DNA from: Acidobacteriota bacterium
GTDB lineage: Bacteria; Acidobacteriota; UBA890; WLXD01
NCBI GenBank assembly: GCA_965205505.1
Contig: CBDBHB010000006.1
Coordinates: 288,001 to 352,000 of the forward strand
Reading direction: 5' to 3'
DNA length: 64,000 nt
Made by a program: the position numbers and the translations under genes. The notes beneath the pieces were generated by a model, which was not told where the DNA came from, searched no databases, and was given only the letters and a program-made list of their open reading frames with translations. How positions within the stretch are numbered: the first letter of the stretch is position 1; every line of letters starts with the position of its first letter. This document shows positions 11,668 through 28,427 of the stretch, piece by piece.

Positions 11668-12410
11668 TCAACGCGAGGTGAACACGTCGGCGGCGATCTC
11701 GCCTTCGATACGGGTGTTCGGGCGAATCACGTCGGCGAGCGTCGTGGCTTCGATCTCGGCCAGATGGGTGCCCTTGAAGGCTCGCTTGTAGAACAGACGG
11801 TCGGCGTCGCGCAACCCGTCGTGCCGCAGCCGTAGCAGTCGTGGCGACACCATGCTGTGGCCAAACCGGAAGGCGGCAGTCGAGAACTCGGTGCAGATCC
11901 CGGCGTCGGCGCGACGGTCCCAGCCCTGATATCGACCGACCGCTCTGCCGCCAAGCAGCCGCGGGAGAAACTCGTTGTAGGTGATCGCTTGCACGAGGCC
12001 GATCACCCTGGCGCGCGCTCGTGCGTAGATCCCGTCGCCCTCCAACCCCGGTGAAGCGTGGCGTATCAGCCGCGCCTGACGGTTGTGCTCGCGTGCCCAC
12101 AGCGTATGCATCGCCAGCAACGCGACGTTCTCGTTGGCGCGGATGTCGCCCGCCAGATAGAAGCTTCTCAGCGTGCCACCGGCGTTGGCGAGGCCGTCTT
12201 CGTTGAACGGCAGCATTCTGCCGTCGCTGGTCAGTAGCTCGCCGCTGCCGTCGTTGGTACGCAGAGCGCTGGCACGCGCCGCATCCGAGCCGTACACGTT
12301 GGAGGCGTCGATGTACGCCGTGATCTCGTTGAGTTGCTGACGCGGGTTGCCTGCGCCGCTACCCGAGGCCGGGTCGTAGATCGAGCGGTTGAAGCAGATT
12401 ACCCGCGTGC
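11668..12410 (-). pseudogene. Relic of an animal-type heme peroxidase (peroxidase-cyclooxygenase superfamily)
   Basis: RQQLNEITAYIDASNVYGS, AGDIRANEN, HTLWAREHNR, QAITYNEFLP, EFSTAAFRFGHS, then a direct jump to LRDADRLFY...TLADVIRPNT. The distal-His N-terminal region and the central NIQRGRDHG region are absent. 5' boundary approximate. Confidence 0.85.
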
Positions 12411-12773
12411 CGGTGCTGCTTCTGCCGCCAGCAGGACGTTGTCGGCCGACGGTATGCCCCGGCCGTCCACTTCTCGTTAGCCGGAGGACCGGTCGGAACG
12501 GATCAGTGGACAGGGGCGGCCACGGGCGACGCCAGGCCGTCGGCAGCGGCCAGGAATTCCTGTCGCTGTTCGCCTCGAGCGGGGACTCGCTGCGTTGCGT
12601 GCTCCGAGCCGGCGTGCCGTGCTCCTTTGAATCCGATCGCCAGGCCCGCCGCACTTTCACCACGGCCTGATAGCGGCAGGCGACATGGTACGGTGGCTTG
12701 GCTCCAAGCGCAGTTGCTGCATCCAATAAGATGAGCTCACAAAGCTAAGAACACCAGAGACAAGAGAACGACG

Positions 12774-13013
12774 ATGGGCGACGATCGACACGGCCTGGAT
12801 CGGATCGAACTACGATCACCCGGCAACGCGCCGACGATGGTCCGAGCGGGCATGGCGCTGGCGGCAGTGCTGGCAGCTGTCCTGCTGGTGGCGATGTCCG
12901 TGCTGGGCACGACCGCGACCGTCAACGCGGCGTCGCATCCGACGATCCAGGCGCAACAGGCCGGCGACGCCGCTATCGCCGAAACGGTGAGCGTCGCCGA
13001 TTCCGAGCGTTGA
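12774..13013 (+). CDS. Possible small exported hypothetical protein
   Basis: Hydrophobic signal-like stretch (MALAAVLAAVLLVAMSVLG...NAA). Stop overlaps the start of the next gene. No family recognised. Confidence 0.3.
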   Translation: MGDDRHGLDRIELRSPGNAPTMVRAGMALAAVLAAVLLVAMSVLGTTATVNAASHPTIQAQQAGDAAIAETVSVADSER

Positions 13014-14608
13014 GCGCCACCCACGACGCGATCGTTATCGGGGGCGGCCACAACGGCCTTGCCTGCGCCGCCTACTTAGCCCGTGCGGGCATGGACGTCC
13101 TCGTACTGGAACGCCGCCATGTACTCGGCGGGGCCGCCGCCACCGAGGAGCCTTGGCCCGGCTACAAGATCTCGTCGGCGGCGTACGTCACGAGCCTGGT
13201 GCCGCCGCGCATCATCTCCGAGCTCAACCTCGATCGCTTCGGCTACAAGGTCTCGATTCTCTCGCCCGACTACTGGGTGCCGTTCGACGACGGCACCGCG
13301 CTAACGCTGCATGGCGACGCCGGCCAGACCGCCGCCGAGATCGCGCGGTTCTCCAAGGCCGACGCCGCCGCCTACCTGAAGTTCGACGAGTACTTCGAGC
13401 ATATCGGCAACCTCGTGCGCGACCTGCTGTTCGTGGTGCCGCCGCGGCTGGAGTGGCGGGAGATACCCAAGTGGCTGTCGCTCGGCCGGCGGTTCCGGCA
13501 CTGGACGGCGCGCGACATCGCCGAAGTCACGCGGCTCTTCACGCTTTCGGGCGCGGACTTCCTCGACGAATGGTTCGAAGATGAGCGCGTCAAGGGCGCC
13601 ATGGCCACGCAGACCATCATCGGCGGGTGGGGTGGGCCCATGAGCCCGGGTTCCGCGTACGTGCTCATGCACCACTGGATCGGTGAGATCGACGGCCAAT
13701 CGGGTGCCTGGGGATGGGTGCACGGTGGCATGGGAGCGCTGAGTCAATCGATCGCCGACTCGGCTCGCGCCGCCGGTGCAACCGTGCGCGCCGAGGCGCC
13801 GGTCCGCCGGATCGTCATCCAGGACGGCAGGGCATCTGGCGTCGAGCTCGAGAGCGGAGAGGTGCTCCACGCGCGGCAGGTGATCTCGTGCGCCCATCCG
13901 GTAACCACCTACTTCGATTTGGTCGGCAAGGAGAACCTTCCTGACGAGGTGGTCGCGGACGTTGGCCGGTATCGCAGTCGCTCCGGCTCGGTGAAGGTCA
14001 ACCTAGCGCTCTCCGAGCTACCGAAGCCGACCGCTTGGAAAGGACCGATTCCCGGGGACCCCCATACCGGGCTGATCGCTATCTCGCCGTCGGTCGAGTA
14101 TCTCGAGCGCGCTTGGGACGACGCGAAGTACGGTCGCACGTCCGAGCATCCCTATCTCGAGGCGGTATTCCCCACGGTGCACGAGCCCGGTCTGGCCCCG
14201 GACGGCAAGCACATCGGGCTGTTCTTCACGCAGTTCGGCCCGTATCACCTCAGGGAAGGCTCGTGGGATACCGAGCGCGAGGTCTACGGCCGCCGGATCC
14301 TTCGCAAGATGGAGGAATACTGCCCCGGCTTCGAGGCTTCCGTCGAGCACATGGAGGTGCTGGCGCCGCCTGACATCGAGGAGCGCTTCGGCCTGCTAGG
14401 GGGCAACATCTTCCAGGGCGACATGGCGCCCGATCAGCTTTTCTGCTTCCGTCCCATTCCGGGCTACGGGGACTACCGGTCGCCGGTCAAGAGCCTGTAT
14501 CTGTGCGGCTCCGGCACCCATCCGGGCGGCGGCGTCATGGGTGTGCCCGGCCGCAACTGCGCTCAGGTCGTCGGTCGCGATGCCCGGCGCCGCTGGTTCG
14601 GCAGGTAG
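13010..14608 (+). CDS. NAD(P)/FAD-dependent oxidoreductase, phytoene dehydrogenase-related (COG1233/PYROXD2-like)
   Basis: GGGHNGL FAD-binding motif, LERRHVLGGAA, GGMGALS, GGNIFQG, LYLCGSGTHPGGGVMG. Confidence 0.9.
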   Translation: MSATHDAIVIGGGHNGLACAAYLARAGMDVLVLERRHVLGGAAATEEPWPGYKISSAAYVTSLVPPRIISELNLDRFGYKVSILSPDYWVPFDDGTALTLHGDAGQTAAEIARFSKADAAAYLKFDEYFEHIGNLVRDLLFVVPPRLEWREIPKWLSLGRRFRHWTARDIAEVTRLFTLSGADFLDEWFEDERVKGAMATQTIIGGWGGPMSPGSAYVLMHHWIGEIDGQSGAWGWVHGGMGALSQSIADSARAAGATVRAEAPVRRIVIQDGRASGVELESGEVLHARQVISCAHPVTTYFDLVGKENLPDEVVADVGRYRSRSGSVKVNLALSELPKPTAWKGPIPGDPHTGLIAISPSVEYLERAWDDAKYGRTSEHPYLEAVFPTVHEPGLAPDGKHIGLFFTQFGPYHLREGSWDTEREVYGRRILRKMEEYCPGFEASVEHMEVLAPPDIEERFGLLGGNIFQGDMAPDQLFCFRPIPGYGDYRSPVKSLYLCGSGTHPGGGVMGVPGRNCAQVVGRDARRRWFGR

Positions 14609-14785
14609 GCGGGCGGGCAGTGGGCGAACCCATAGTGCGCTGTCCGGTTGACGCTTGCTGCCACCTACCGCGTAGCTCCGTCCAGAGCGACCTGGGCTGC
14701 CGACGGCCGGTGCTAGACTCCGGCGCCGTTGCCGCAAGGCAACCGCGCAGGCGACGCGAATGTGCACCAGCCAAGGAGGTACCGA

Positions 14786-15883
14786 ATGGAGGTGAGAGCT
14801 GCAGTTCTCGAGGAACCGGGCGCCGAGTTCAGCGTCGGCCCCGTGGACCTGGACGAGCCACGCGGCGATGAGGTCCTCGTCAAGGTTGTTGCCACCGGCA
14901 TCTGCCACACGGATCTGTCAGTGCGCGATCAGTACTATCCGGTGCCGCTGCCGGCAGTTCTCGGCCATGAGGGTGCCGGCATCGTGGAGCGCGTCGGCTC
15001 CGACGTCATCAAGGTCAAGGAAGGCGATCACGTCGTCCTGAGCTTCCACTCATGCGGCGCCTGCGGGAACTGCAAGCAAGGCTCGCCTGGGTACTGCCTG
15101 GAGCTGTTCGGGCACAACTTCGGCGGCGCTCGGCCCGATGGGTCGCCGGTGATGCACCGCGGAGACGATGTCGTCCACGGCGCTTTCTTTGGCCAGTCGT
15201 CCTTCGCCGACTACGCGCTGGCCTTCGAGCGCAACGTCGTGAAAGTACGCGAGGACGCGCCGCTCGAGATGCTCGGCCCGCTCGGCTGTGGGATCCAGAC
15301 GGGAGCCGGAACGGTGCTGAACAACCTGCATCCCAGGGCCGGCCAGAGCATCGCGGTCTTCGGCGTCGGTACCGTCGGTCTGTCGTCGGTCATGGCAGCC
15401 AAGATCGCCGGCTGCGATCCGATTATCGCCGTCGATCTGAACGTCAAGCGACTGAGCCTCGCCGAGGAGCTCGGCGCGACGCACGCGATCAATGCCTCTG
15501 ACGCCGATCCGGTCGAGGTGATTCAGGAGCTCACCGGCGGTGGTGTCAACTACTCGGTCGAGGCGACCGGCGTCCCCGAGGTGGTGCGTCAATCGGTGGA
15601 CTCGCTCGGACTCCTGGGCGTTTGTGGCCTGCTGGGGACCTCGCCGCTAGGAACGGAGATCACCCTCGATATGAACGCCATCTTGTTCGGCCGCACCGTC
15701 CGCGGTGTGATCGAGGGTGACGCGGTGCCGGATCTGTTCATTCCGCAGATGGTCGACATGTACATGGCGGGCAAGTTCCCGATCGATCGCCTGATGGAGT
15801 TCTACAGCCTCGATCAGATCAACGAGGCGGTCGCAGCGACCGAGGGCGGAGGCACCGTGAAGCCCATCCTACGAATGGGCTGA
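14786..15883 (+). CDS. Zn-dependent NAD(P) alcohol dehydrogenase, benzyl/aryl-alcohol (geraniol dehydrogenase-like) subfamily
   Basis: AAGGAGG RBS, ATG 14786. GICHTD, GHEGAG, CGACGNC..YC, FFGQSSFA, GPLGCGIQTGAG, IEGDAVP. Confidence 0.9.
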   Translation: MEVRAAVLEEPGAEFSVGPVDLDEPRGDEVLVKVVATGICHTDLSVRDQYYPVPLPAVLGHEGAGIVERVGSDVIKVKEGDHVVLSFHSCGACGNCKQGSPGYCLELFGHNFGGARPDGSPVMHRGDDVVHGAFFGQSSFADYALAFERNVVKVREDAPLEMLGPLGCGIQTGAGTVLNNLHPRAGQSIAVFGVGTVGLSSVMAAKIAGCDPIIAVDLNVKRLSLAEELGATHAINASDADPVEVIQELTGGGVNYSVEATGVPEVVRQSVDSLGLLGVCGLLGTSPLGTEITLDMNAILFGRTVRGVIEGDAVPDLFIPQMVDMYMAGKFPIDRLMEFYSLDQINEAVAATEGGGTVKPILRMG

Positions 15884-15889
15884 GGGAGA

Positions 15890-17410
15890 TCACGGGTCGA
15901 GAGCGCTCAGCTCACGCCGCATGATCTTGCCGGTGCTGGTCTTCGGCAGATCGTCGACGAACTGCACCGTCCGCGGCACCTTGTACGCAGCCAGGTGCTC
16001 TCGGCAGTGGCTGACGATCGCCGCTTCGTCCCCGTTCGCGCCTTTCTTGAGAACCACGTAAGCCTTGGCTGTCTCGCCCTTCATTTCATCCGGCTGACGT
16101 CCTACGGCCACCATGGCGACGTCAGGATGCGCCGCGACGACGCGCTCGATCTCCGCCGGGTACACGTTGTAGCCGCCCGTGAGGATCATGTCCTTCTTGC
16201 GATCGACGATGGTGACGTAGCCATCGGCGTCCATGCTGGCCAGGTCTCCGGTGTGCAGCCAGCCATCCGGCTCGATGGTCTCGGCGGTCCCCCGCTCGTT
16301 GCCGTAGTAGCCCTGCATGACGATCGGGCCGCGCGCCATCAGCTCGCCGACCTGACCACGTGGCAGGGTCTGGTTCGCGTCGTCCACTGCCGCTATGCGC
16401 ATCTCACAGCTGGGCAGCGAAACACCGATCGAGCCGTGCTTGTTGAGCCCATACCGTAGGTTGGTGGTGCCAAGCCCGGCGAGCTCCGTCATTCCCCAGA
16501 GCTCGATGAGCGGGCAGCCGAAGCGTTCCTCGACCTCCCGCATCTTGTTGACCGCCATGGTCTGGCCGCCGACCGTGCAGCAGGTGAGCGACGACAGATC
16601 GTAGTTGACCAGCCCTGGGTGATCCAACAGGTACAGATACATCGTCGGCACACCCTCGAATATGGTGGCGCCGTGGTCTTGGATCGACTGCAAGATTTCG
16701 TCCTGCACGAACAGCGGATGTAGAACTAGCTTCATGCCAACCATGAAAGCGGCGTTGAAGATGACGTTGCCGTATACGTGCGGACACGGCAGCGCCGTGA
16801 CGATGGTGTCTTCGGCGGTGCGCACGTGCATGTTCGCCAACAAGGCGGCGTTGATGATCACGCTCCGGTGGCTTTGCATGGCGCCCTTCGGGTGCCCCGT
16901 GGTGCCCGAGGTATAGCAAATCGTCGACAACGCGTCGGCCGGTACCTCGCGGACCTCGAAGCCGGGTTCGTTGCTCTCGACGAGCTCGTTGAACGACCGC
17001 GCATCGGCGGGGACCTGGTCGCCGAAGACGATGATCTCCTCGACGTCGGAGGAGTCCTTGAGGCCGAGGATCGGTTCCCCTTTTTCTTTCGAGGCCAACA
17101 CCGCCTTTGCGCCGCAGTCGGCGGCTACGAACGCGACCTCCTCCGGGGTCAGCATCACGTTGATCGGATTGATCACCGCCCCGGTCTTGAGCGCTGCGTA
17201 GTAGCTGACGATCCACTCCCAGCGGTTGGCGGAGTACAGCGTCACGCGATCTCCGGGCGTGATTCCGAGCGTCTCCAGACCCTTTGCCAGGCGATCGGAT
17301 AGCTCATTGAGGTCGCGGAACGAGAACCTCTTGTCCCCGGACACCAGCGCGGTCTTCTCGCCGTACTTCACGGCAGCGGCGGGCAGGATCTCTCCGAGCG
17401 AGGTCAGCAT
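15890..17410 (-). CDS. Long-chain acyl-CoA ligase (AMP-forming)
   Basis: YTSGTTGHPKG, WGMTE, GWLHTGD, DRKKDMI, LAAYKVP, LPKTSTGKI. Start could extend to 17449. Confidence 0.92.
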   Translation of the reverse strand: MLTSLGEILPAAAVKYGEKTALVSGDKRFSFRDLNELSDRLAKGLETLGITPGDRVTLYSANRWEWIVSYYAALKTGAVINPINVMLTPEEVAFVAADCGAKAVLASKEKGEPILGLKDSSDVEEIIVFGDQVPADARSFNELVESNEPGFEVREVPADALSTICYTSGTTGHPKGAMQSHRSVIINAALLANMHVRTAEDTIVTALPCPHVYGNVIFNAAFMVGMKLVLHPLFVQDEILQSIQDHGATIFEGVPTMYLYLLDHPGLVNYDLSSLTCCTVGGQTMAVNKMREVEERFGCPLIELWGMTELAGLGTTNLRYGLNKHGSIGVSLPSCEMRIAAVDDANQTLPRGQVGELMARGPIVMQGYYGNERGTAETIEPDGWLHTGDLASMDADGYVTIVDRKKDMILTGGYNVYPAEIERVVAAHPDVAMVAVGRQPDEMKGETAKAYVVLKKGANGDEAAIVSHCREHLAAYKVPRTVQFVDDLPKTSTGKIMRRELSALDP

Positions 17411-17563
17411 CTCGACGTTCTGGTACAACGGGCACGGAGCGTAAGTCAAACGGAGGGTGGAGGGACCCTTGACGGTTTCGGAGGTCGGAAACTAGTCTCG
17501 ACAGACACCCTGCGTCTCAGTCTTCGGCCCATCTCGAACTGCACAGCACCCTGGAGCGGCACC

Positions 17564-19210
17564 ATGCGGCATCGCGTCCTACCAATCTCTGTTCTCTGCG
17601 CGGCGCTGGTCGGTGCGCAGCCGGTCGCGCCCCCGGCGGGCGCGGCCATCCTCGCCTCCGACTATCCCTCGCTGTCTACCGAGGAGATGGGGCACGTCCG
17701 CCACATGATCAACCTCGCCAATCAGCTCGACGGCGACTGGTCGCTGATGGGCAACACGCCGGGTGGCAACAACTTCGACGCCTACCAGTTCCAGATCGCC
17801 TTTGCCACCTACGCACTGAGCCTGGCGCAGTACCACAAGGTGCCGGCGCATCGGGACCTCTACCGAGACGCGTCGAGGCGGCTCATCGAGAAGATGATCT
17901 ACAAGGACGTCTGGCAGTACTGGGCGCGCATGAGCCAGTACGAGAAACGCGGTGCGGACCAGGACGGCAACAGCTCCGTGTATCGCGAGGATGGCTGGCA
18001 AGGATGGATCGATCCCAACATCAAGTCGAACATCATGTACAGTGGTCACCTGCTGCAGATGGTCAGCCTGCACGAGTCGCTGTTCGACGACCATCGCTAC
18101 GATGATCCCGGATCTCTGCCGTTCGTGTTCCCGGCGATCGAATACGGCGGCGAGCCGCTGCGCATGGACTACGACCACCAACGGCTGGCGACGGTGATCT
18201 ACGACCAGTTCGTTGCCAGCGACTTCCTCGGCATTGAATGCGAGCTCGGCGCCATCTACACCGAGTGCAACCAGCATCCGATCCTCGGCCTGATCCAGTA
18301 CGACCAGACGCACGGGACGGACTACTCGGCCGAGGTCGAGCAGGAGTTCGCCAAGACGATCCACGAGCGGGAATTCATCTCGCCGGAGAACCACACGACG
18401 ATGTTCTACCTCCACGTGCGCTCCGACGAGGTGATTCCGGCGTCGACCAAGTGGTCATCGACCGGCATGGCCTGGAGCGACGGCTGGAACGGACAGGCAC
18501 ACCACGTCTGGGCCCCGCAGTACGTCAAGGACCTGTATCGCGAGCAAGTGAAGCTCTACATCCCGGGCATGTTCCAGGGTGAGCCCGGCTCCGACATGGG
18601 CTGGACGTCGTCGTTCGATTTCGGCTGGTTCGCGGTGCTGGCGGCCGAGGTCGGCGACATGAAGACCGTCGCCACCATGCTCGAGTACGCCGACGAGCAC
18701 TTCGGGCCTACCTGGCGTGACGGCGGCCTCTATTACCCGCACACGCCCGATTACCGAGAGAACTTCAACCGCGACGAGAACGGTTTCATCCACAACATCA
18801 GCCCAGTCACCGGCAACGTGCTGGTGGCGATGGCGCGCCTCAACCCTGGCGACGGTCTGTGGACGCTGTACAACCAGCCGTGGGAGGAGGAGCACTTCGC
18901 GGAACCGTTCGTTAGCGGCGTGGAGTACATCGAGGCTAATGTCACGCAGGCGATCTACGATCGCGAGGAGGCGGCTCTGATCGTCACGCTGGCGCCCGGA
19001 CCGGTGGAAACGGACAGCACCACCTTCACGATCAACCAGCTCGATCCAACGATCTCGTACTCGATATACAAGGATGGCCGCCACCTCGGCGACCTGAGCA
19101 GTGGATCTACGAACAGAGTGGCGGGGATCCTGTGGAACTTCGACGGTACTCTGACGATCTCCACCGAGCTCGACGAGGCGCATAGCTTCGTGGTGGCCGC
19201 CGATCGGTGA
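17564..19210 (+). CDS. Exported linalool dehydratase/isomerase (Ldi/LinD)-like protein
   Basis: Signal peptide. FQIAFATYAL, KM..K.VW.YW, DP..KSNIMYSGHL and GIECELGAIYTECNQ...YDQTHGTDY resemble the LinD segments recalled from memory (NIMYKGH, CEPDNYFVQCNS, YDRLHGTDY). C-terminal beta-rich extension. Confidence 0.8.
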   Translation: MRHRVLPISVLCAALVGAQPVAPPAGAAILASDYPSLSTEEMGHVRHMINLANQLDGDWSLMGNTPGGNNFDAYQFQIAFATYALSLAQYHKVPAHRDLYRDASRRLIEKMIYKDVWQYWARMSQYEKRGADQDGNSSVYREDGWQGWIDPNIKSNIMYSGHLLQMVSLHESLFDDHRYDDPGSLPFVFPAIEYGGEPLRMDYDHQRLATVIYDQFVASDFLGIECELGAIYTECNQHPILGLIQYDQTHGTDYSAEVEQEFAKTIHEREFISPENHTTMFYLHVRSDEVIPASTKWSSTGMAWSDGWNGQAHHVWAPQYVKDLYREQVKLYIPGMFQGEPGSDMGWTSSFDFGWFAVLAAEVGDMKTVATMLEYADEHFGPTWRDGGLYYPHTPDYRENFNRDENGFIHNISPVTGNVLVAMARLNPGDGLWTLYNQPWEEEHFAEPFVSGVEYIEANVTQAIYDREEAALIVTLAPGPVETDSTTFTINQLDPTISYSIYKDGRHLGDLSSGSTNRVAGILWNFDGTLTISTELDEAHSFVVAADR

Positions 19211-19977
19211 TCCAACGAGCCGCCATAGATCGGTACGTCCTGCTGATCGTCTCCGTGACCTTGTTTGCGGCGTGCAACGACGCGGTCGAACGACCGGACC
19301 ACGACCCGCAGACCGAAGAGCTGGTACGTCAGTACCTGACGGACAACCCAGGGTTCCTGCTCGACAATCCCGAGCTTCTCGCAAACGTTCGGGTGGCGGG
19401 GCAGGCGCGCGATGAGCAGCGTGACGCGGAGGCGCGCCGGGCGATTCTCGACGCCCGCGCCGACATCGTCATTGACCCGGAGCTGACCCCGACGATCGGC
19501 TCGACAGGCGCATCGGTAACGATCATAGAGTTCTCCGACTACCAGTGCGCGCCGTGCAAGGCGAGCTATCCGGAGATCGCGGCGGTGGCCGCATCTGACG
19601 GTGACCTGCGTCTCGTTCATAAGCAGCTGCCGGTGTACGGGAGCCACTCGGTGCTCGCCGCTCGGGCGGCAACGGCTGCTCATCGGCAGGGAGGCTTCGT
19701 TGGGTTCCACGACGCGCTGATGACCACCATGACGCCGCTGACCGCGGAGCTTGTCTACGCTACTGCCGATGATCTGGGACTCGATGTGGACGCGCTCCGG
19801 CGAGACATGCGGGATCCGCGACTGATCGAGTATCTCGCCGCCGTCAAAGAGCTCGCCGAAGCGCTCGATATCGACAGCACACCGACCTTCATCGTTGGCG
19901 ACCATCTCGTCCGCGGCGGTCTGAACGCCGAGCTGCTGCGGGAGTTGGTGCAGAAGCAACGCGCTGTGGATGGCTGA
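19207..19977 (+). CDS. DsbA/ScsC-like thioredoxin-fold lipoprotein
   Basis: Lipobox LFAAC, LVRQYLTDNP N-terminal helix, EFSDYQCAPC active site, cis-Pro loop STPTF. GTGA overlap with the upstream gene. Confidence 0.88.
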   Translation: MIQRAAIDRYVLLIVSVTLFAACNDAVERPDHDPQTEELVRQYLTDNPGFLLDNPELLANVRVAGQARDEQRDAEARRAILDARADIVIDPELTPTIGSTGASVTIIEFSDYQCAPCKASYPEIAAVAASDGDLRLVHKQLPVYGSHSVLAARAATAAHRQGGFVGFHDALMTTMTPLTAELVYATADDLGLDVDALRRDMRDPRLIEYLAAVKELAEALDIDSTPTFIVGDHLVRGGLNAELLRELVQKQRAVDG

Positions 19978-20090
19978 TTGCGTTGCAACTGCCTGTCCCG
20001 CACATAGCTTTGCTGTTCGCCAACCCCCTCGGCGCGGTGCGCGTTCCGGCCAGCCGGTCAGTGAACTCCCGGCGTTGCCTCAAGGCCCCT

Positions 20091-20193
20091 AGCTTCGAAG
20101 AGTACCTGGTGGCCGGGCGCGATGACGACGCCGATCCTGGTTTGCACGTTGGCGTCTACCTATTACGGCCTCGACGTGCTGTTCGGTACGTGA
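20091..20193 (+). pseudogene. Short remnant of a sodium:solute symporter N-terminus
   Basis: Two frames read SFEEYLVAGR / MTTPILVCTLASTYYGLDVLFGT*, resembling the SSS motif DYxxAGR...TLxxT..G. The rest of the gene is absent. Confidence 0.5.
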
Positions 20194-20197
20194 GGCC

Positions 20198-20329
20198 ATG
20201 AACGGTTGGGACCTGTTTACCTGGATCAACGCGCTAGTGCTGGCGGCGAGCGCGGTAGTGATCTTTGCTTACTTCTTACGTGACGCCCGCGCAGTACTCG
20301 GGCGTCAGGGGCGTGACCACGATGAGTGA
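20198..20329 (+). CDS. 43-aa single-TM microprotein
   Basis: GAGG RBS, ATG 20198. MNGWDLFTWINALVLAASAVVIFAYFLRDARAVLGRQGRDHDE*. Stop overlaps the MOSC gene start. Below the ORF-track length cutoff. Confidence 0.6.
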   Translation: MNGWDLFTWINALVLAASAVVIFAYFLRDARAVLGRQGRDHDE

Positions 20330-20876
20330 GCTCGCTGGGTCGGTCGTATCCGTCCACAGTGGTGACCATGTCGACTTGCACAAAGAAGAGCAGCCGGAAG
20401 TTCAGGCGCAGCTCGATGGCTTCGTCGGCGACAAGCACCGCGGCTACTCGCGTGTGGCCTTCGCGGGCGACATCGATCCGGTGGGCACCGTGCGGCGAAA
20501 CGAGCGTCAGTGGTCAGCAGTGTCGATCGAGGAGCTCGAGGTAGTCGCGCAGCGGATGGATCTGCGGGAGCCGCTCGCCGCCTCGACGCTGGGAGCAAAC
20601 CTGTGCTTCCAGGACATCCCAGATCTGTCCGGGCTGCTGCGGGGTACACGCTTACACTTTCCTTCCGGAGCCGTCTTGCGCGTCGAGGAGTGTAATCCGC
20701 CCTGCGTCGAGATGGGGGACCAAATTGCCGCCGCCTACACCACCCACGCCGGTGGTCCGGTGGTCGCCGCCATGTTTCCCAAACACGCGCTGAACCTGCG
20801 CGGCGTGGTCGGGGTGGTCGACGTGCCCGGCCCCATCAGGGCGGGTGACCGCGTGGTAGTCAGATCGGCGCCGTAG
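20322..20876 (+). CDS. MOSC domain-containing protein
   Basis: GSVVSVH, GFVGDKH, RQWSAVSIEEL, LGANLCF, ECNPPC, RGVVGVVDVPGPIRAGD. Confidence 0.85.
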   Translation: MSELAGSVVSVHSGDHVDLHKEEQPEVQAQLDGFVGDKHRGYSRVAFAGDIDPVGTVRRNERQWSAVSIEELEVVAQRMDLREPLAASTLGANLCFQDIPDLSGLLRGTRLHFPSGAVLRVEECNPPCVEMGDQIAAAYTTHAGGPVVAAMFPKHALNLRGVVGVVDVPGPIRAGDRVVVRSAP

Positions 20877-20912: not shown

Positions 20913-21646
20913 CTACTTGCGTACCAATGCGTCGAAGATAGCGTTGCGGATGCGCGGGGTCGGTCGGTCACGTAGCTCGGCGTCGTCGAGCGACTCGGCG
21001 ATCTTCATCAGCACCGTCGAGATACGCCGCGGTGCTCCACCGCCTTCGCGAGCCCGCGCACCAGTCGGGCGGGATGAAGGGCGGCAACCTCGGCAAGAAA
21101 CACGCCGCCATAGTTTCGCGCCGTACGGATGTGCGAGGCACATTCCTGCGGTTCCATCCAGCGCACTTCGTCGTCGGTGGCTCCGAGCGCCCGCCAGTCG
21201 TCGAGCTCTTCCCTGACGTGCGCGTGGAACATTTTCGAGGTGGCGATGGTGATATTGCCCCCTTTGGCCCAGTTGCAGTCGATCTCCTCCTGTACACAGA
21301 CACGCCCGACCTCATCGACGGTGTTGAACAGCGCCCGCTGCAAACGAATCGCGCCGTTGCGCTGAGCTGGATCGTGCAGCAGCTGGCCGATGCCGGCCAT
21401 GGTGCCGAGACACCATCCCCCGTTGCGGCCCGACGCCCCGAATCCGGCGATCTCGGCCTCGAGGATGGCTATACGGATGCCGGGCTGACGCTCAGCGAGG
21501 TAGTACGCGGTCCACAGCCCGGTGAACCCGGCACCGACGATAACGACATCTACTCGCTTGTCGGTGGTCAGGCCGGGGCGCGGCGCCAGCGGCTCTGGAA
21601 CCGTGTCGTGCCAGAAGCTGAGGTTGCGGTACTCGTTAGCCGACAC
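20913..21646 (-). pseudogene. FAD-dependent oxidoreductase (DAO/PuuB-like) with a large internal deletion
   Basis: GTG start with GAGGGG RBS. SFWHDT, VGAGFTGLWTAYYL, GASGRNGGW, HPARLVRGLA..VEHRGV, then the frame breaks at about 21025. A C-terminus-like tail (ISTVLMKIAESLDDAE...FDALVRK*) follows in another frame. Confidence 0.8.
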
Positions 21647-23396: not shown

Positions 23397-25757
23397 TCAG
23401 CTACCGACCCTCGCCTGGGCGCGCTCGGCGAGGCGGGCATTCAGGCGGGACAGGTCGTCCCGGCCGAGTCGATTGTAGATGTCTGCCAAGAGGAAGTGCC
23501 CCAGCGCGCGATCCCGCGGCGGGATCCCGCTCACCGCCAGGGCTCCCTCGACCAACTCGATGGCCTCCTCGTAACCCTGACCGCGCACCAGGTGGATGCG
23601 TGCCATGAAGAGACGCGCGCGCGGGAACATCGGATCGATCGTTAGCGCCAGCTGGAGATAGCGCTCCTCTTGCTCCAGATCTTGCAGGTTACGGTGTATC
23701 AGGCTCAGGTTGAACGCCGACATCAGGTGCCCGGGCGAGATCTCGAGCTCGCGACGGTAGGCGGCGATCGCCTCGTTCAGTCGACCCCGGCGCTCGAACA
23801 GCTGGGCCCAGGTGAAGTGCAGCTCCGGTATCTGGTCGTTGAGCTCCTGGGCGCGATCCAGCTGCGGCTGGGCGAGCTCGATACGACCGAGTTGCATGTG
23901 CGCGCTGGCCAGCCCGACGTGCGCCCCGGCCATGTTGGGGTCGAGCTCGAGCGCTTGGTTGAACGCCGCGATCGCTTCCTCATGGCGCCCGCTGCGCTGG
24001 TAGATGCCTCCGAGGGAGAGTTGAACCCGGGCGTCTGGCTCCAGCACATCGGCGAAATCGGTCAGCACCCGCTCGGCATCATCGGTCCGCCCTGAGCGCA
24101 TCTGAGCGTTGGCGAGGAACAGCACCATGCCGATGTCGTCTGGCTTTCGGGCGATCGCCTCCTCGAAGACAGGGATAGCCTCGGGGTAACGTTCCTGATC
24201 GCTCAGCAGGTTGCCGAGCGCTTGGTAGGCATCGATCACCCCGGGGTCGGCAGCGATGATGCCACGGAACAGCGATTCCGCCTCCGCTAGCTCAGACCGC
24301 AACGTCAGCGACCGCGCCCTCAGGAGATCGTTGTAGATGTCGATCTTGCCTACGGGGCTGGCTCGGATCTCGGTGTCGTCCTCGATGGAGTCGGCGAAGT
24401 TGCCCAGATATCCGAGGGCGGCGAGCCGCCGGCGGGTTTCCTCGTCGAGCGTCACGGCCTCGGCCAGACCGCCATCCTGCTCGTAGTCCGCTACCAGGGT
24501 GTCGGCCTGCTGACGTAGCAGCTCGGTGGTGGCGGCGCGCTGCTGCGACAGGTTCACGGCCTCGTCCGGGTCCGATGCCAAGTCATAGAGCTCCGGCTCG
24601 GACGACATGATGAGCTTGTACTCGGGGCTCAGCAGGACACGTAACTCGCTCCAACCGAAGTGCAGCCGCGGGTAGTAGGTCTCGGAGTAGACCAAGCTGT
24701 CGGTGCGCTCGGGAGCGCCGGCGCCGAGCAGCGGGACCAGGCTCTGGCTCTGCACCTCGGACGGAATCGGCAGCCCGACCAGCGTGAGGATCGTGGGCAT
24801 GATGTCGACCAGCGACACGGGCTCGGATCGCCGTACGCCCTGATAGGCCGCAAACGGTGTGGAGATTACCAGGGGAACGCGGATCGTCGCTTCATAGAGA
24901 AAGAAGCCGTGCTCGATCTCGCCGTGCTCACCGAGGCTCTCGCCGTGGTCCCCCGCTACGATCACGAAGGTATCCTCACGGCGGCCGCTGCTGTCGAGCC
25001 AAGCGATCAGGCGACGGAGCTGCGTATCTGCATAGGCGATCTCGCCGACGTACGGGCGTTCCGGATATCGGTCGCGAAATTCAGGCGGTGGCTCGTACGG
25101 GGTGTGGGCGTCGAACATGTGGACCCACAGGAAGAACGGCGCCGATGGATCTTGGCGGGACCACGCCAGCGCGGCGTCGACCACGTCCGACGCCGGCCGC
25201 TGGATGCTCGCCAGCGCGATCATGCGCGTCCGGGGCACCTCGAACTCGTCGAAGTAGGTGTCGAAGCCCTGCGCCAGCCCGAAGCGCCCGTCGAGGACGA
25301 ACGACGAGACGAACGCCCCCGTCCGATAACCGGCGTCGCGGAACAACTCCCCCAGCGTATCCAGATCGTCGGGCGCCACAAAGGCGCCGTTGTCGCGCAC
25401 GCCGTGGTAGGGAGGGTACGTGCCGCTCATCAACGACGTATGCGATGGCAGCGTCAGCGGCGTCGCCGAGTAGGCGCGCAGGAAGGTAACGCCCGCAGCG
25501 GCCAGCCCATCGAATGCAGGGGTCTCGATGTCGTCGTAGCCATAGGCCCCGATGCGGTCGGCCCGTGTCGTGTCGAGCGTTACCAGCATTACGTTCATCT
25601 GTCGGTCGCCGCGCAGCGAGGCGATGTCAGGTGCAGTCGTCGGTGCCGACAACAAACGATAGCCGACATACGCGAGCGCCGTCACGACCGCCAGGCCTAC
25701 CACGGCGCGCACTGCTATGGTTTGCCAGCTTCGTGATCTGGAGGTCAGCTTGGTCAT
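23397..25757 (-). CDS. Sulfatase-like (alkaline phosphatase superfamily) hydrolase fused to C-terminal TPRs
   Basis: TM anchor, LVTLDTTRAD, TPLTLPSHTSLMSG, FLWVHMFDAH, AGDHGESLGEHGE, ELYDL, RLAALGY, then TPRs. ATG 25757. Confidence 0.9.
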   Translation of the reverse strand: MTKLTSRSRSWQTIAVRAVVGLAVVTALAYVGYRLLSAPTTAPDIASLRGDRQMNVMLVTLDTTRADRIGAYGYDDIETPAFDGLAAAGVTFLRAYSATPLTLPSHTSLMSGTYPPYHGVRDNGAFVAPDDLDTLGELFRDAGYRTGAFVSSFVLDGRFGLAQGFDTYFDEFEVPRTRMIALASIQRPASDVVDAALAWSRQDPSAPFFLWVHMFDAHTPYEPPPEFRDRYPERPYVGEIAYADTQLRRLIAWLDSSGRREDTFVIVAGDHGESLGEHGEIEHGFFLYEATIRVPLVISTPFAAYQGVRRSEPVSLVDIMPTILTLVGLPIPSEVQSQSLVPLLGAGAPERTDSLVYSETYYPRLHFGWSELRVLLSPEYKLIMSSEPELYDLASDPDEAVNLSQQRAATTELLRQQADTLVADYEQDGGLAEAVTLDEETRRRLAALGYLGNFADSIEDDTEIRASPVGKIDIYNDLLRARSLTLRSELAEAESLFRGIIAADPGVIDAYQALGNLLSDQERYPEAIPVFEEAIARKPDDIGMVLFLANAQMRSGRTDDAERVLTDFADVLEPDARVQLSLGGIYQRSGRHEEAIAAFNQALELDPNMAGAHVGLASAHMQLGRIELAQPQLDRAQELNDQIPELHFTWAQLFERRGRLNEAIAAYRRELEISPGHLMSAFNLSLIHRNLQDLEQEERYLQLALTIDPMFPRARLFMARIHLVRGQGYEEAIELVEGALAVSGIPPRDRALGHFLLADIYNRLGRDDLSRLNARLAERAQARVGS

Positions 25758-25797
25758 CAGGGCTCGTCGCTGATCAGCGGTGCGCAGGGGTCCATCG

Positions 25798-28251
25798 TCA
25801 GCGCTGTGTCCCGTCTCGGAGCTGCATCCCAAGACGGGCGTGCTGGTTGGAGAGCTCGTTTCTTCCGAGTCGATTGTAGATGTCCGCGAGCAAGAGATGG
25901 CCCAGCGCCTGGTTCTGCCTGGTGATCTCTTGCGGTACCCGACGCGCCGTCGATGATTCCATTCGCACCAACGCCTCCTCGACGAGCGACAAGGCCTCGT
26001 CGAGGCGCTCGTTCTTCACCAGGTGGATGCGAGCCAGGAACAGGCTTCCACGGGTGAACTGCGGGTTGATCTCGAGGGCCAGACGCAGGTACCGCTCCTC
26101 CCCGACGAGGTCGCGTCGGTTGCGGTAGATGACGCTGAGGTTGATCGCGGCCCTGATGTTGCGCGGCACGTTCTCGAGCTCGCGGCGGTAGGCGGCGATT
26201 GCCTCGTCCGGCTGTCCTCGGGCCTCGAACAGCAAGGCGCGATGGAAGTGCAGATCGGCGAGGGTATCGTTGAAGCCGCGCGCCAGGTTCAGGTGGTCAT
26301 CCGCCAGGCGCGGGCGGCCGGCGGCCAGGTGGACGGCGCCGAGCCCGAGGTGCGCGGCGCCCATGAGATTGTCGACCGGCTTGGGTGCGGTTCGCAGCAG
26401 CCCTGGCATGTCCGCCAGACTGCCCTCGCTGAGGCGCAACGCCTCGTTGAAGTAGGTTGCCGCCTCGTCGTAGGACCCCGTGGATCGCTTGATCTGCCCT
26501 AGGTTGATGTAGAACCGGGCATCCGGCTTCGGGACGTCGATGAAGTCCAGCAACAGAGCCTCGGCCGCGTCCATCCGACCGGCCTGCATCTGCGACTTGG
26601 TGAGATGCACTACCAGGCCTGCATCTTCGGGCCTCATAGAGAGCGCGGTCTCCAAGACTTCGATTGCCTCCTCGTAGCGGAACTGCTCCAAGAGCAGAGT
26701 GCCGAGCGACTGGTGCGCATCGACTACGCCGGCATCCTCGGCGATGACCCTCCGCAGGAGCGTCTCGGCCTCGGCTACCTGGTCGCTGAGGGTCAGGCCG
26801 CGGGCTCGGATCAGGTCGTTGTAGATCTCGATCTTGTCCCTCGGGTTGGCGCGCTCGACGTCCGGGTCGTCGGCGTCGGCGCTGTAGGTGCCGATGTAGC
26901 CGAGCGCGGCGAGCCGCTGCCGCGTCGCCTGGTCGACTGCGACGGTGTTCGCTGGGTTGCTATTCTCCTCGAGCCGCGCCACCAGCTCCTCGGCCTCCCG
27001 GCGCAGCGCCTCTGCCGTGGCGGCGCGCTGTGATACGAGGTTCTGCTGTTCTCCGGGGTCCTGCACAAGATCGTAGAGCTCCGGCTCGGGCGAGATGATG
27101 AGCTTGTAGGTTGGGTCGAGGATCGCCTGGAGCTCGCTCCAGCCGAAATGGAGGCGCGGGTAGAAAGTCTCGGCATAGACGCGCTCGTCGCGCCAGCCCT
27201 CGACCTCGGCGTGCCTGGCAAACAGCGGTACCAGGCTCCTGCCCTGCACCTCCTCGGGGGTCTCCAGCCCGGTCAACTCCAGCACGGTCGGCATGACGTC
27301 GATCAACGAGACCAGCTCGTGACGCTGGATGCCCTGCGGCTCGCCGAATGGCGCGGCGATGATCAGCGGCACCCGGATGGCCGACTCATACAGCAGCAGC
27401 CCGTGCTCGTTCTCCCCGTGCTCGCCAAGGCTCTCGCCGTGATCGGCTGCCACCACCACGTAGGTGTCGTCGGACAGACCGGAGTCGTCCAGCCACGAGG
27501 TCAGCCTGCCCACCAAGGAGTCGGTCCAGGCGATCTCACCGACGTAAGGCCGATCGGCGTATCGTGACCTGAAGGGCTCCGGCGGCTCGTATGGGGCGTG
27601 CGGATCGTACAGGTGTACCCACATGAAGAACGGGGTCGTGTCGTCCTCGCGGGCCCAGGCCAAGGCGGTGTCGATGACCTCCGATCCGGGACGCTGCACG
27701 TGGCCCAGATCGATCTGTCCTTGCTCGGGCGCCTCGAACTCGTCGAAGTAGCGGTCGAACCCCTGCGCCAGGCCCCAGCGCGAGTCGAGGACGAAGGCCC
27801 CGACGAAGGCGCCGGTGCGGTAGCCGGCCTCCTGGAAGCTCTCGGCCAGGGTCTGCAGCCCTTCCGCGGCAACGTACGCGCCGTTGTCGCGCACCCCGTG
27901 GTAGGGCGGGTGGGTGCCGGTGAACAGCGACGTGTGCGAGGGCAGCGTCAGCGGCGTTGGGGCGTAGGCGCGCATGAAGGTGACGCCGCGGGCGGCAAGC
28001 GCATCGATAACAGGTGTGTCGACGTCGTCTGATCCGTAGACTCCGATGTGATCGGCGCGCGTCGTGTCGAGCGTCACCAGCACGACGCTCATCTGCCGGT
28101 CGCCGCGCCGCGAGCCGAGGTCCGGCGCCGAGCCCGGGAGGCGCCAGAACAGATATCCGATGAGGGTCGATGAGAGCACGATCGCCAGGGTGATGCCGGC
28201 GCGAACGGCTCCGGGTCGACGACGAAACGAGCTGGCAGTGGAGTGGGTCAT
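25798..28251 (-). CDS. Second sulfatase-like hydrolase/TPR protein (paralog)
   Basis: LVTLDTTRAD, TPLTLPSHTSLFTG, WVHLYDPH, AADHGESLGEHGE, RLAALGY, TPRs. ATG 28251. Confidence 0.9.
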   Translation of the reverse strand: MTHSTASSFRRRPGAVRAGITLAIVLSSTLIGYLFWRLPGSAPDLGSRRGDRQMSVVLVTLDTTRADHIGVYGSDDVDTPVIDALAARGVTFMRAYAPTPLTLPSHTSLFTGTHPPYHGVRDNGAYVAAEGLQTLAESFQEAGYRTGAFVGAFVLDSRWGLAQGFDRYFDEFEAPEQGQIDLGHVQRPGSEVIDTALAWAREDDTTPFFMWVHLYDPHAPYEPPEPFRSRYADRPYVGEIAWTDSLVGRLTSWLDDSGLSDDTYVVVAADHGESLGEHGENEHGLLLYESAIRVPLIIAAPFGEPQGIQRHELVSLIDVMPTVLELTGLETPEEVQGRSLVPLFARHAEVEGWRDERVYAETFYPRLHFGWSELQAILDPTYKLIISPEPELYDLVQDPGEQQNLVSQRAATAEALRREAEELVARLEENSNPANTVAVDQATRQRLAALGYIGTYSADADDPDVERANPRDKIEIYNDLIRARGLTLSDQVAEAETLLRRVIAEDAGVVDAHQSLGTLLLEQFRYEEAIEVLETALSMRPEDAGLVVHLTKSQMQAGRMDAAEALLLDFIDVPKPDARFYINLGQIKRSTGSYDEAATYFNEALRLSEGSLADMPGLLRTAPKPVDNLMGAAHLGLGAVHLAAGRPRLADDHLNLARGFNDTLADLHFHRALLFEARGQPDEAIAAYRRELENVPRNIRAAINLSVIYRNRRDLVGEERYLRLALEINPQFTRGSLFLARIHLVKNERLDEALSLVEEALVRMESSTARRVPQEITRQNQALGHLLLADIYNRLGRNELSNQHARLGMQLRDGTQR

Positions 28252-28427
28252 GATGGCTTGGAGTCGGCACCGGTCGATGAGGCCGAGCGGTGCGCGGCGC
28301 GGCACTCCGACCAGGGGTTGCCCGACGGGCATCCATGTAGTTTATAGGTGTACTGGGGCGGCTCACCAGATCGCCGGCCCGTGGATGCGAGGCGATCCTG
28401 CCGGTGAGGCTCAGACTTCGGTTGAGG

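Follow-up and report, generated by a model that had tools for sequence, protein, structure and literature searches.

A long Ldi-family enzyme encoded together with a periplasmic thioredoxin-fold protein across several bacterial phyla: a possible dedicated thiol reductant

The gene pair and its proposed role

We describe here a pair of overlapping genes in a 64,000-nucleotide stretch of DNA from an Acidobacteriota bacterium (GenBank assembly GCA_965205505.1, contig CBDBHB010000006.1, positions 288,001 to 352,000), which is called the window in what follows. The first gene (17564..19210, forward strand) encodes a long-form protein of 548 amino acids (aa) from the Ldi family, that of the linalool dehydratase LinD, and the second (19207..19977, forward strand) encodes a 256-aa ScsC-like lipoprotein of the DsbA fold. 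This Ldi-like/ScsC-like gene pair is kept across several bacterial phyla and, more generally, the module is made of a long Ldi-like enzyme and a periplasmic thioredoxin-fold protein. The original prediction, made from the sequence alone, had proposed a two-gene module of an Ldi-like enzyme with an ScsC/DsbA-like protein; the pairing held, but its scope had been drawn too narrowly, since SCO1/SenC and TlpA-like proteins also serve as partners. Both open reading frames (ORFs) are as that prediction described them, and every checkable detail proved correct.

For this module, which way the electrons flow, which protein is served, where the electrons come from and which reaction is catalysed are all inferred. 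Our favoured reading, to which we assign a probability of about 0.55, is that the lipoprotein is a dedicated periplasmic reductant/isomerase for the two cysteines C226 and C235 of the enzyme, acting on the newly exported monomer, because of the invariant CxPC motif of the partner, its ScsC-type stalk and its replacement by reductant families in sister clades. With such a partner at hand, an enzyme that depends on free thiols can probably function beyond the cytoplasm in the presence of air.

Exported free-thiol enzymes are problematic in air, and the known solutions are general reductants (DsbG/DsbC with DsbD) or belong to cytochrome and copper-site assembly. The present enzyme family appears to bring its own reductant gene across phyla, swapped among three thioredoxin-fold families, and the pair offers a clean and testable client-partner case for periplasmic redox control. 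LinD has been studied as a biocatalyst for alkene/alcohol chemistry, and the natural partners found in aerobic bacteria might permit its use in air. At least several hundred uncharacterised long-form Ldi proteins occur in marine, sponge-associated and soil bacteria, sitting in alcohol-to-acyl-CoA catabolic clusters. The principles themselves have precedents, both in exported reducing power that protects functional thiols and in a DsbA paralog dedicated to one enzyme; what would be new is a reductant that is tied to one client, is passed on together with a hydratase family and can be drawn from the ScsC-like, the SCO1 or the TlpA-like proteins. No described two-gene module of this kind had been known to the original prediction, and we found no published description either: a search of one literature library returned no link of linalool dehydratase with DsbA and no mention of PF18566, and the papers naming linalool dehydratase together with thioredoxin were unrelated to the pairing.

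The Ldi-like enzyme

The 548-aa protein matches the Pfam Ldi profile (PF18566) with 263.9 bits against a cut-off of 26.1 (E 3.2e-78), over profile positions 1-315 of 318, while an NCBIfam search assigned it to no family and its sequence matches in the PDB are LinD chains only. Its AlphaFold2 (AF2) model, built from 18 relatives (predicted local distance difference test, pLDDT, 86; predicted template-modelling score, pTM, 0.88), has a helical barrel up to about residue 446, an (alpha/alpha)6 barrel like that of LinD. With this model, the 12 best-listed Foldseek matches were all LinD chains (E ~1e-11, 22% identity), with template-modelling (TM) scores of 0.72-0.78 on the target, the top match scoring 0.77 on the target versus 0.53 on the query; after LinD there are weak matches to barrel-plus-sandwich enzymes, e.g. 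GH127. The protein belongs to the Ldi family and has a LinD-like fold. Beyond the barrel lies a C-terminal beta domain of eight strands (residues 449-546; 18908..19201; pLDDT mostly >90), which has no counterpart in the 364-aa LinD chains, and the LinD match spans the helical part only. In the original prediction, a substrate other than that of LinD was held to be probable for the long form with this domain. A protein search gave 414 relatives at E <= 0.001, the best 120 of which all carry PF18566 and are mostly 520-570 aa long.

The active-site motifs are kept, as had been predicted. In the HMMER alignment with LinD chains such as 7ad2, NIMYSGH (residues 156-162; 18029..18049) pairs with NIMYKGH of LinD, including LinD Met125 and His129, and CELGAIYTEC, that is C226-E227-x7-C235 (residues 226-235; 18239..18268), pairs with CEPDNYFVQC, which holds the catalytic cysteines of LinD (numbered C171/C180 in the PDB and C170/C179 in PMC6600392). 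N156 and M158 are invariant in the 18 relatives and the motif His gives way to Tyr in 6 locus rows of the alignment, and both cysteines of the pair are present in 61/61 aligned locus rows covering the site. The only cysteines of the protein are residues 12, 226 and 235. Cys12 lies inside a hydrophobic N-terminal leader (about residues 1-29; 17564..17650) that reads as Sec-type and has no twin-arginine motif; pLDDT is <50 at residues 1-5 and 16-24, and the relatives have equivalent leaders, ending before a conserved YPSLS motif. Since Cys12 sits in the leader, the mature protein holds only C226 and C235, in agreement with the original prediction. From the alignment of these leaders, export of the enzyme is predicted, and it may be regarded as a putative hydratase/isomerase dependent on its cysteine pair.

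LinD of Castellaniella defragrans (PDB 5g1u, 5hss, 5i3t) is, of course, the natural comparison. It belongs to the same Pfam family, has the same (alpha/alpha)6 barrel and an N-terminal export leader, shares the NIMYxGH and CE-x7-C motifs, and has an allyl/benzyl-type alcohol dehydrogenase nearby (GeoA in C. defragrans, PMC4109377), as does the window enzyme. The two proteins are only about 22% identical, the window enzyme being some 150 residues longer by virtue of its C-terminal beta domain and lacking the C48-C101 capping disulfide of LinD. LinD is a homopentamer with its active site at the subunit interface and acts as a hydratase-isomerase on myrcene, linalool and geraniol; the model of the window enzyme is that of a monomer. 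LinD is described as Sec-exported, oxygen-sensitive and in need of dithiothreitol (DTT), with C48-C101 as a capping disulfide and C170/C179 having to stay reduced for all reactions (PMC6600392), which bears out the need for reducing conditions claimed in the original prediction; the oxygen sensitivity and the reductant requirement are also given in PMC4791888.

The lipoprotein partner

The 256-aa partner matches the Pfam families Thioredoxin_4 (66 bits) and DSBA (54 bits), and NCBIfam gives only the sub-threshold Rcas_1661 (65.6 bits vs. a cut-off of 190). Its solved relatives by sequence are 3gyk and the ScsC proteins of Caulobacter (7rgv), Proteus (4xvw) and Salmonella (4gxz). In the AF2 model (pLDDT 92), helices 34-46, 49-53 and 55-83 precede the DsbA-like domain, and the top Foldseek matches are 7rgv and Proteus ScsC 5id4, with 4xvw also among the top. 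The phmmer alignment to 7rgv begins at residue 34, so that the N-terminal helical part is included, and phmmer, model and conservation together delimit a helical stalk at residues 34-88 (19306..19470) with the conserved pattern VRxYLxxxPExxLDxPE; judged from sequence and model, this stalk is homologous to the oligomerisation region of Caulobacter ScsC. The partner shares with ScsC-type proteins an N-terminal helical region followed by a DsbA/thioredoxin fold with CxxC and a conserved T225-P226, as the original prediction had held from the CAPC motif and the N-terminal helix.

Three cysteines are present in the partner. Cys23 closes the lipobox LFAAC at the end of a lipoprotein signal peptide (19207..19275) and is found at the same aligned position in most partners of the close clade, so that lipidation of the partner is predicted. 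The other two, C114 and C117, form the active-site CAPC (residues 114-117; 19546..19557), and Thr225-Pro226 (19879..19884) is presumably the cis-proline loop, its cis conformation following from the fold. In a 20-partner alignment C114, P116, C117 and P226 are invariant and T225 nearly so, and CxPC occurs in 36/36 partners, the variable position being A, V, S, T, I, M, P, R or E. A proline at the second variable position is likewise a feature of the thioredoxin motif. The motif of TlpA, CVPC, shares it with the CAPC of the partner (PMC6669012). A classical DsbA oxidase has a CPxC-type motif and DsbB or VKOR as its partner, features that do not describe the CAPC protein, and an scs operon with ScsB as electron donor is likewise missing, with one CcdA elsewhere in the genome. 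Among longer proteins, a search for fused forms of the partner gave 2, neither with an Ldi domain, and no Ldi-DsbA fusion was seen, which is weak evidence.

Conservation of the pair across phyla

In the window, the two genes overlap by the four nucleotides GTGA (19207..19210), as had been claimed: the junction reads ...GATCGGTGATCC..., with the GTG start of the partner at 19207 and the TGA stop of the Ldi-like gene at 19208-19210. The pairing is not limited to this genome. Sixty related loci with 4-kb flanks were collected from a scan of one genome per prokaryote species, and a DsbA-like partner was found by tblastn at 35 of them. The close clade comprises 26 loci with 54-90% identity to the window enzyme; 22 of these carry the partner directly downstream on the same strand, which amounts to 22/22 of the close-clade loci having >= 900 bp downstream, the other four being three loci that end 0-46 bp past the gene (L009, L010, L054) and a 58-residue fragment (L058). 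These 22 loci are not independent, L015/L016 being identical copies on one contig and L017/L018 near-identical, and the labels of their records range over Acidobacteriota, Woeseia, Porticoccaceae, Halieaceae, Luminiphilus, Myxococcota and Planctomycetota. If each partner is read from its first in-frame start (the figures vary with this choice), the 4-nt overlap recurs in 7 loci besides the window, a 1-nt overlap occurs in 2, and in most close-clade loci the gaps are <= 47 nt. Several genomes hold two nearby Ldi-like paralogs, each with its own thioredoxin-fold neighbour, namely L029 and L036 (separated by about 15 kb on one chromosome), L038 and L053 (two copies each), and L050 and L055 (on one contig).

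All ORFs of the loci were also clustered and annotated with Pfam, and three partner classes were then scored with local profiles. In distant clades (32-42% identity), the Ldi-like gene adjoins SCO1/SenC and/or TlpA-like Redoxin proteins, with TlpA-like and SCO1 genes flanking Ldi-like genes in sphingomonad clades. A thioredoxin-fold gene of any class is present at 46/60 loci, 35 of them with the DsbA-like class and 11 with SCO1 and/or TlpA-like genes only. At L056 the gene order is Ldi-like, DsbA-like, SCO1, and at two further loci single ORFs (L042:3883-5106 and L043:7104-8855), downstream of the Ldi-like gene and a Zn alcohol dehydrogenase, encode DsbA/ScsC-like-SCO1/SenC fusions, so that a single chain combines both partner types. 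CxxxCP and the distal His are intact in the SCO1-like neighbours, and the TlpA-like neighbours carry WC[AG]PC. On a tree of 56 Ldi-like rows, from which 7 rows <480 aa had been dropped, the partner type tracks the clades and the DsbA-like label requires 6 changes; an outer group on long branches consists of four Verrucomicrobia/Kiritimatiellia rows, which lack a partner and whose proteins are rich in cysteines and anchored in the membrane by their N-termini. No partner class was found at 14/60 loci, 7 of which are truncated or fragments (L009, L010, L031, L040, L045, L054 and L058).

A copper-related alternative

The replacement of the partner by SCO1/SenC and TlpA-like proteins in sister clades raises a copper-related explanation, in which a site formed by C226/C235, Met158 and His162 carries copper or is poisoned by it, and the ScsC-like, SCO1 and TlpA-like neighbours metallate or protect it, inserting copper or stripping it from the thiols much as TlpA/ScoI/PcuC act on the CuA site of CoxB. 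Two Cys, a Met and a His are residues of the kind that typically bind soft metals, the SCO1-like neighbours retain CxxxCP and His, the DsbA-SCO1 fusions of L042 and L043 and the gene order of L056 bring two of these families together, and TonB-dependent receptors occur at 20 loci. All three partner families are linked to copper, given that reduced ScsC sequesters copper (PMC11634996), ScoI binds it via CX3CP and His, and TlpA makes ScoI and CoxB ready to receive the metal (PMC6669012). We nevertheless consider this explanation rather unlikely. LinD is described as a cysteine acid/base catalyst in an account that mentions no metal (PMC6600392, as far as its catalytic description goes), 6 rows with Tyr in place of His162 retain DsbA-like partners, neither PCuAC nor any other copper gene is a recurrent neighbour, the window operon has no SCO1 (its nearest SCO1-like matches lie on other contigs), and the catabolic neighbours suit a hydratase/isomerase.

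A bolder form of the same idea, which we hold to be more doubtful still, is that the long Ldi-like proteins would be an unrecognised class of periplasmic copper-dependent or copper-gated enzymes with Cys226/Cys235/Met158/His162 as the copper site, loaded or cleared by whichever thioredoxin-fold copper handler adjoins (ScsC-like, SCO1 or TlpA-like). If this were true, the machinery of CuA-type assembly would have in this module a second system of clients, one that lies outside respiration.

Co-inheritance and the redox machinery of the host

The nearest relatives of the window are metagenome-assembled genomes of Acidobacteriota. An Ldi match is found in 5/201 sampled genomes of the phylum, the window's own genome counted. 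Within the genus, the window genome and three others (G069, G130 and G204) have both the Ldi-like gene and the adjacent partner, and G118 has neither; the partners of this genus are 66-67% identical to the window partner (100% in the window's own genome), and the remaining 16 genomes of the order sample have at most a paralog of <=34% identity to it. In the window genome the paralog is a 370-aa DsbA-like lipoprotein with a CPFC motif. This genome also has one DsbD_TM match, a CcdA of 242 aa on another contig, and VKOR on other contigs, and DsbB was not found in it. Both a reductive conduit and an oxidative system are thus present (CcdA and VKOR). The two VKOR matches have identical scores (G000:C7:404333-404719 and G000:C9:4181-4567, one near a contig end) and are probably a repeated or doubly assembled segment.

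A housekeeping DsbA role for the partner was considered and ruled out, given that a separate CPFC lipoprotein and VKOR exist and that the partner follows the Ldi-like gene in the genus. The co-inheritance within the genus and the separate CPFC paralog indicate, instead, a specialised paralog travelling with the enzyme gene.

A specialised DsbA fold might also be a dedicated oxidase, introducing a structural or regulatory C226-C235 disulfide as DsbL does for arylsulfate sulfotransferase (AssT), and the DsbL/DsbI system, with its dedicated DsbA paralog encoded in an operon beside one periplasmic client enzyme, provides the precedent. That system is oxidative and has its own membrane partner, whereas here none is adjacent, no DsbB, DsbI or VKOR gene adjoining the pair, and both the motif and the proteins that take the place of the partner elsewhere speak for reduction. 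The active-site motif is CxPC and not CPxC, and the TlpA-like and SCO1 proteins of the sister clades are reductants or copper carriers, not oxidases. Moreover, the housekeeping CPFC DsbA-like protein and VKOR should be able to oxidise a simple consecutive cysteine pair unaided. ScsC homologues can complement lost disulfide oxidase activity in E. coli (PMC11634996), but the LinD cysteines equivalent to C226 and C235 must be reduced for all reactions (PMC6600392), and we find a dedicated oxidase quite unlikely.

A dedicated reductant/isomerase for the catalytic thiols

In the mechanism that we favour, the Sec-exported long-form Ldi enzyme would use the free thiols of C226 and C235, with the Met and His of NIMYSGH, on some alkene or allylic/tertiary alcohol, and its product would pass to the neighbouring alcohol dehydrogenase and acyl-CoA ligase. 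C226 and C235 follow each other as cysteines in a chain that is still unfolded during its passage through the membrane; oxidative folding by the cell, or air, would therefore tend to join them as a disulfide or to over-oxidise them, inactivating the enzyme. The second gene would be co-transcribed with the first, and its product, presumably a membrane-tethered ScsC-like oxidoreductase with a thioredoxin-type CxPC, would reduce or unscramble the pair on the newly exported monomer and then hold the thiols free, and would draw its own electrons from a carrier in the membrane, for which the CcdA of the genome is a candidate. In this operon, the Ldi-like enzyme seems to be the only possible client, because the Zn alcohol dehydrogenase, the CoA ligase and the flavin adenine dinucleotide (FAD) enzyme are taken as cytoplasmic from the usual location of their families. 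The behaviour of the related proteins is consistent with such a role: ScsC proteins depend on ScsB or DsbD to stay reduced, and their oligomerisation is reported to block oxidation by DsbB (PMC3322552, PMC11634996), and TlpA and SCO1 proteins keep client cysteine pairs in the dithiol state (PMC6669012).

Several points weigh against a dedicated reductant. Seven full-flank loci (L026, L035, L044, L057, L059, L060 and L061) have no thioredoxin-fold neighbour, yet both cysteines, together with a leader or a membrane anchor at the N-terminus, are retained in their Ldi-like proteins, so that there is no clean correlation of cysteine pair and export signals with the presence of a partner. LinD of C. 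defragrans, in contrast to the window enzyme, has no thioredoxin-fold neighbour in the published gene table (PMC4109377), and it needs no dedicated partner for activity in the E. coli periplasm (PMC6600392); since LinD works in this way, the partner is not a general requirement of the Ldi family. The LinD active site is buried at the subunit interface (PMC6600392), and with a site of that type a protein reductant would reach the pair only before assembly. ScsC shows both oxidase and reductase activity in E. coli (PMC11634996), and the full copper-binding CxxxCP and His of the SCO1-like partners also fits a copper role. Finally, the electron donor is a guess, as no CcdA, DsbD, ScsB, DsbB or VKOR is found among the neighbour families recurring in the 4-kb flanks, a survey that left ORFs present at single loci unscanned.

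The Ldi-like protein of one partner-less locus (L044:3968-5593) has a leader resembling a twin-arginine (Tat) signal (KRRAVLAGSGALALG). If export takes place in the folded state, a protein might do without a partner, although this is a single case.

Relation to known periplasmic reductants

DsbG protects the catalytic cysteines of L,D-transpeptidases from oxidation. DsbG and DsbC with DsbD embody the same idea as the favoured reading, in which exported reducing power keeps the functional thiols of periplasmic enzymes reduced, but they are general and are not encoded with their clients, whereas here a client-linked paralog is inherited with the enzyme gene. Sulfenic acid reduction is among the roles named for exported reducing power (PMC3322552).

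The ScsC proteins of Caulobacter crescentus and Proteus mirabilis (7rgv, 4xvw, 5id4) share the helical stalk and the DsbA-like domain with the partner, and ScsC is kept reduced and acts as a reductase/isomerase (PMC11634996, PMC3322552). The active-site motif is CAPC in the partner versus CGYC in ScsC 7rgv and CPYC in 3gyk. Unlike ScsC, the partner is a lipoprotein without the scsABD context or a nearby ScsB-type gene, and it is tied to one enzyme gene, ScsC being tied to copper stress. In the TlpA/ScoI/CoxB system of Bradyrhizobium, a periplasmic CVPC reductant keeps a client cysteine pair in the dithiol form (PMC6669012). Whereas that system serves a cytochrome oxidase copper site, the client proposed here is a putative hydratase for which no metal binding is known, and the window has the ScsC-like form of partner, not TlpA or SCO1.

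Catabolic context and other possible clients

Upstream of the pair in the window lie a Zn-dependent alcohol dehydrogenase of the benzyl/allyl-alcohol type (14729..15883, forward strand; Pfam, with best PDB matches 5tnx and benzyl alcohol dehydrogenase 1f8f) and, divergent on the reverse strand, an AMP-binding acyl-CoA synthetase (15890..17449; Pfam, and the long-chain-fatty-acid-CoA ligase subfamily of NCBIfam). The families of these two genes also occur at 20/60 and 12/60 of the related loci, respectively. TonB-dependent receptors are found at 20/60 loci, PQQ-cytochrome c alcohol dehydrogenases at 11 and aldehyde dehydrogenases at 8, and other recurrent neighbours are regulators (TetR, GntR, LysR), an esterase, dehydrogenases and transporters. 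In C. defragrans, LinD, GeoA and GeoB lead from alcohol to acid (PMC4109377); the recurrent neighbours mirror this route, which fits a catabolic hydratase/isomerase. A CrtI/CrtO (phytoene desaturase) family FAD-dependent oxidoreductase (13010..14608, forward strand; Pfam, and NCBIfam with 285 bits against a cut-off of 1000 for the CrtO-like family, also crtI_fam) is syntenic with L003 and may be part of the same catabolic cluster.

These neighbours suggest one more explanation, namely that the partner is merely co-regulated with the pathway and attends to another client or to general envelope protection, for example by repairing thiol damage caused by reactive products or by serving an outer-membrane receptor or a PQQ dehydrogenase. 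Frequent exported neighbours do include TonB receptors (20 loci) as well as PQQ-cytochrome c dehydrogenases (11 loci), and PQQ alcohol dehydrogenases contain an unusual disulfide. However, the constant neighbour is the Ldi-like gene, immediately upstream of the partner with an overlap or a gap of <= 47 nt at most of the close-clade loci, neither the receptor nor the PQQ enzyme occurs in the window cluster or at L002 and L003, and the partner and the Ldi-like gene are gained or lost together within the genus. We therefore regard another client as very unlikely.

Other observations in the window

A scan of 17300-20400 for promoters and terminators gave nothing above shuffles. In a metatranscriptome run (X20), a 261-nt contig is identical to 18763-19022 of the Ldi-like gene; it was set aside as evidence of expression, as DNA carry-over is possible and the gene junction is not spanned. 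DNA runs from several studies cover most of a 2.7-kb stretch around the Ldi-like gene.

Just downstream of the pair lies a MOSC-domain protein gene (20265-20876, forward strand), which is not a recurrent neighbour at other loci. It is followed by a 212-aa ORF (21008-21646, reverse strand) matching only the N-terminal half of the DAO FAD-oxidoreductase profile; counterparts at the same position are 483 aa long, e.g. L002:6504-7955, and the gene may be truncated or frameshifted. On the other side, a 352-aa ORF (11668-12726, reverse strand) matches the middle of the animal haem peroxidase profile (123-328 of 530), a match unusual for this phylum, and the gene may extend into another ORF. Further downstream of the pair, two tandem genes on the reverse strand (23397-25832 and 25798-28332) encode proteins of >800 aa each, with a sulfatase domain and C-terminal tetratricopeptide (TPR) repeats, and further TPR proteins adjoin this tandem.

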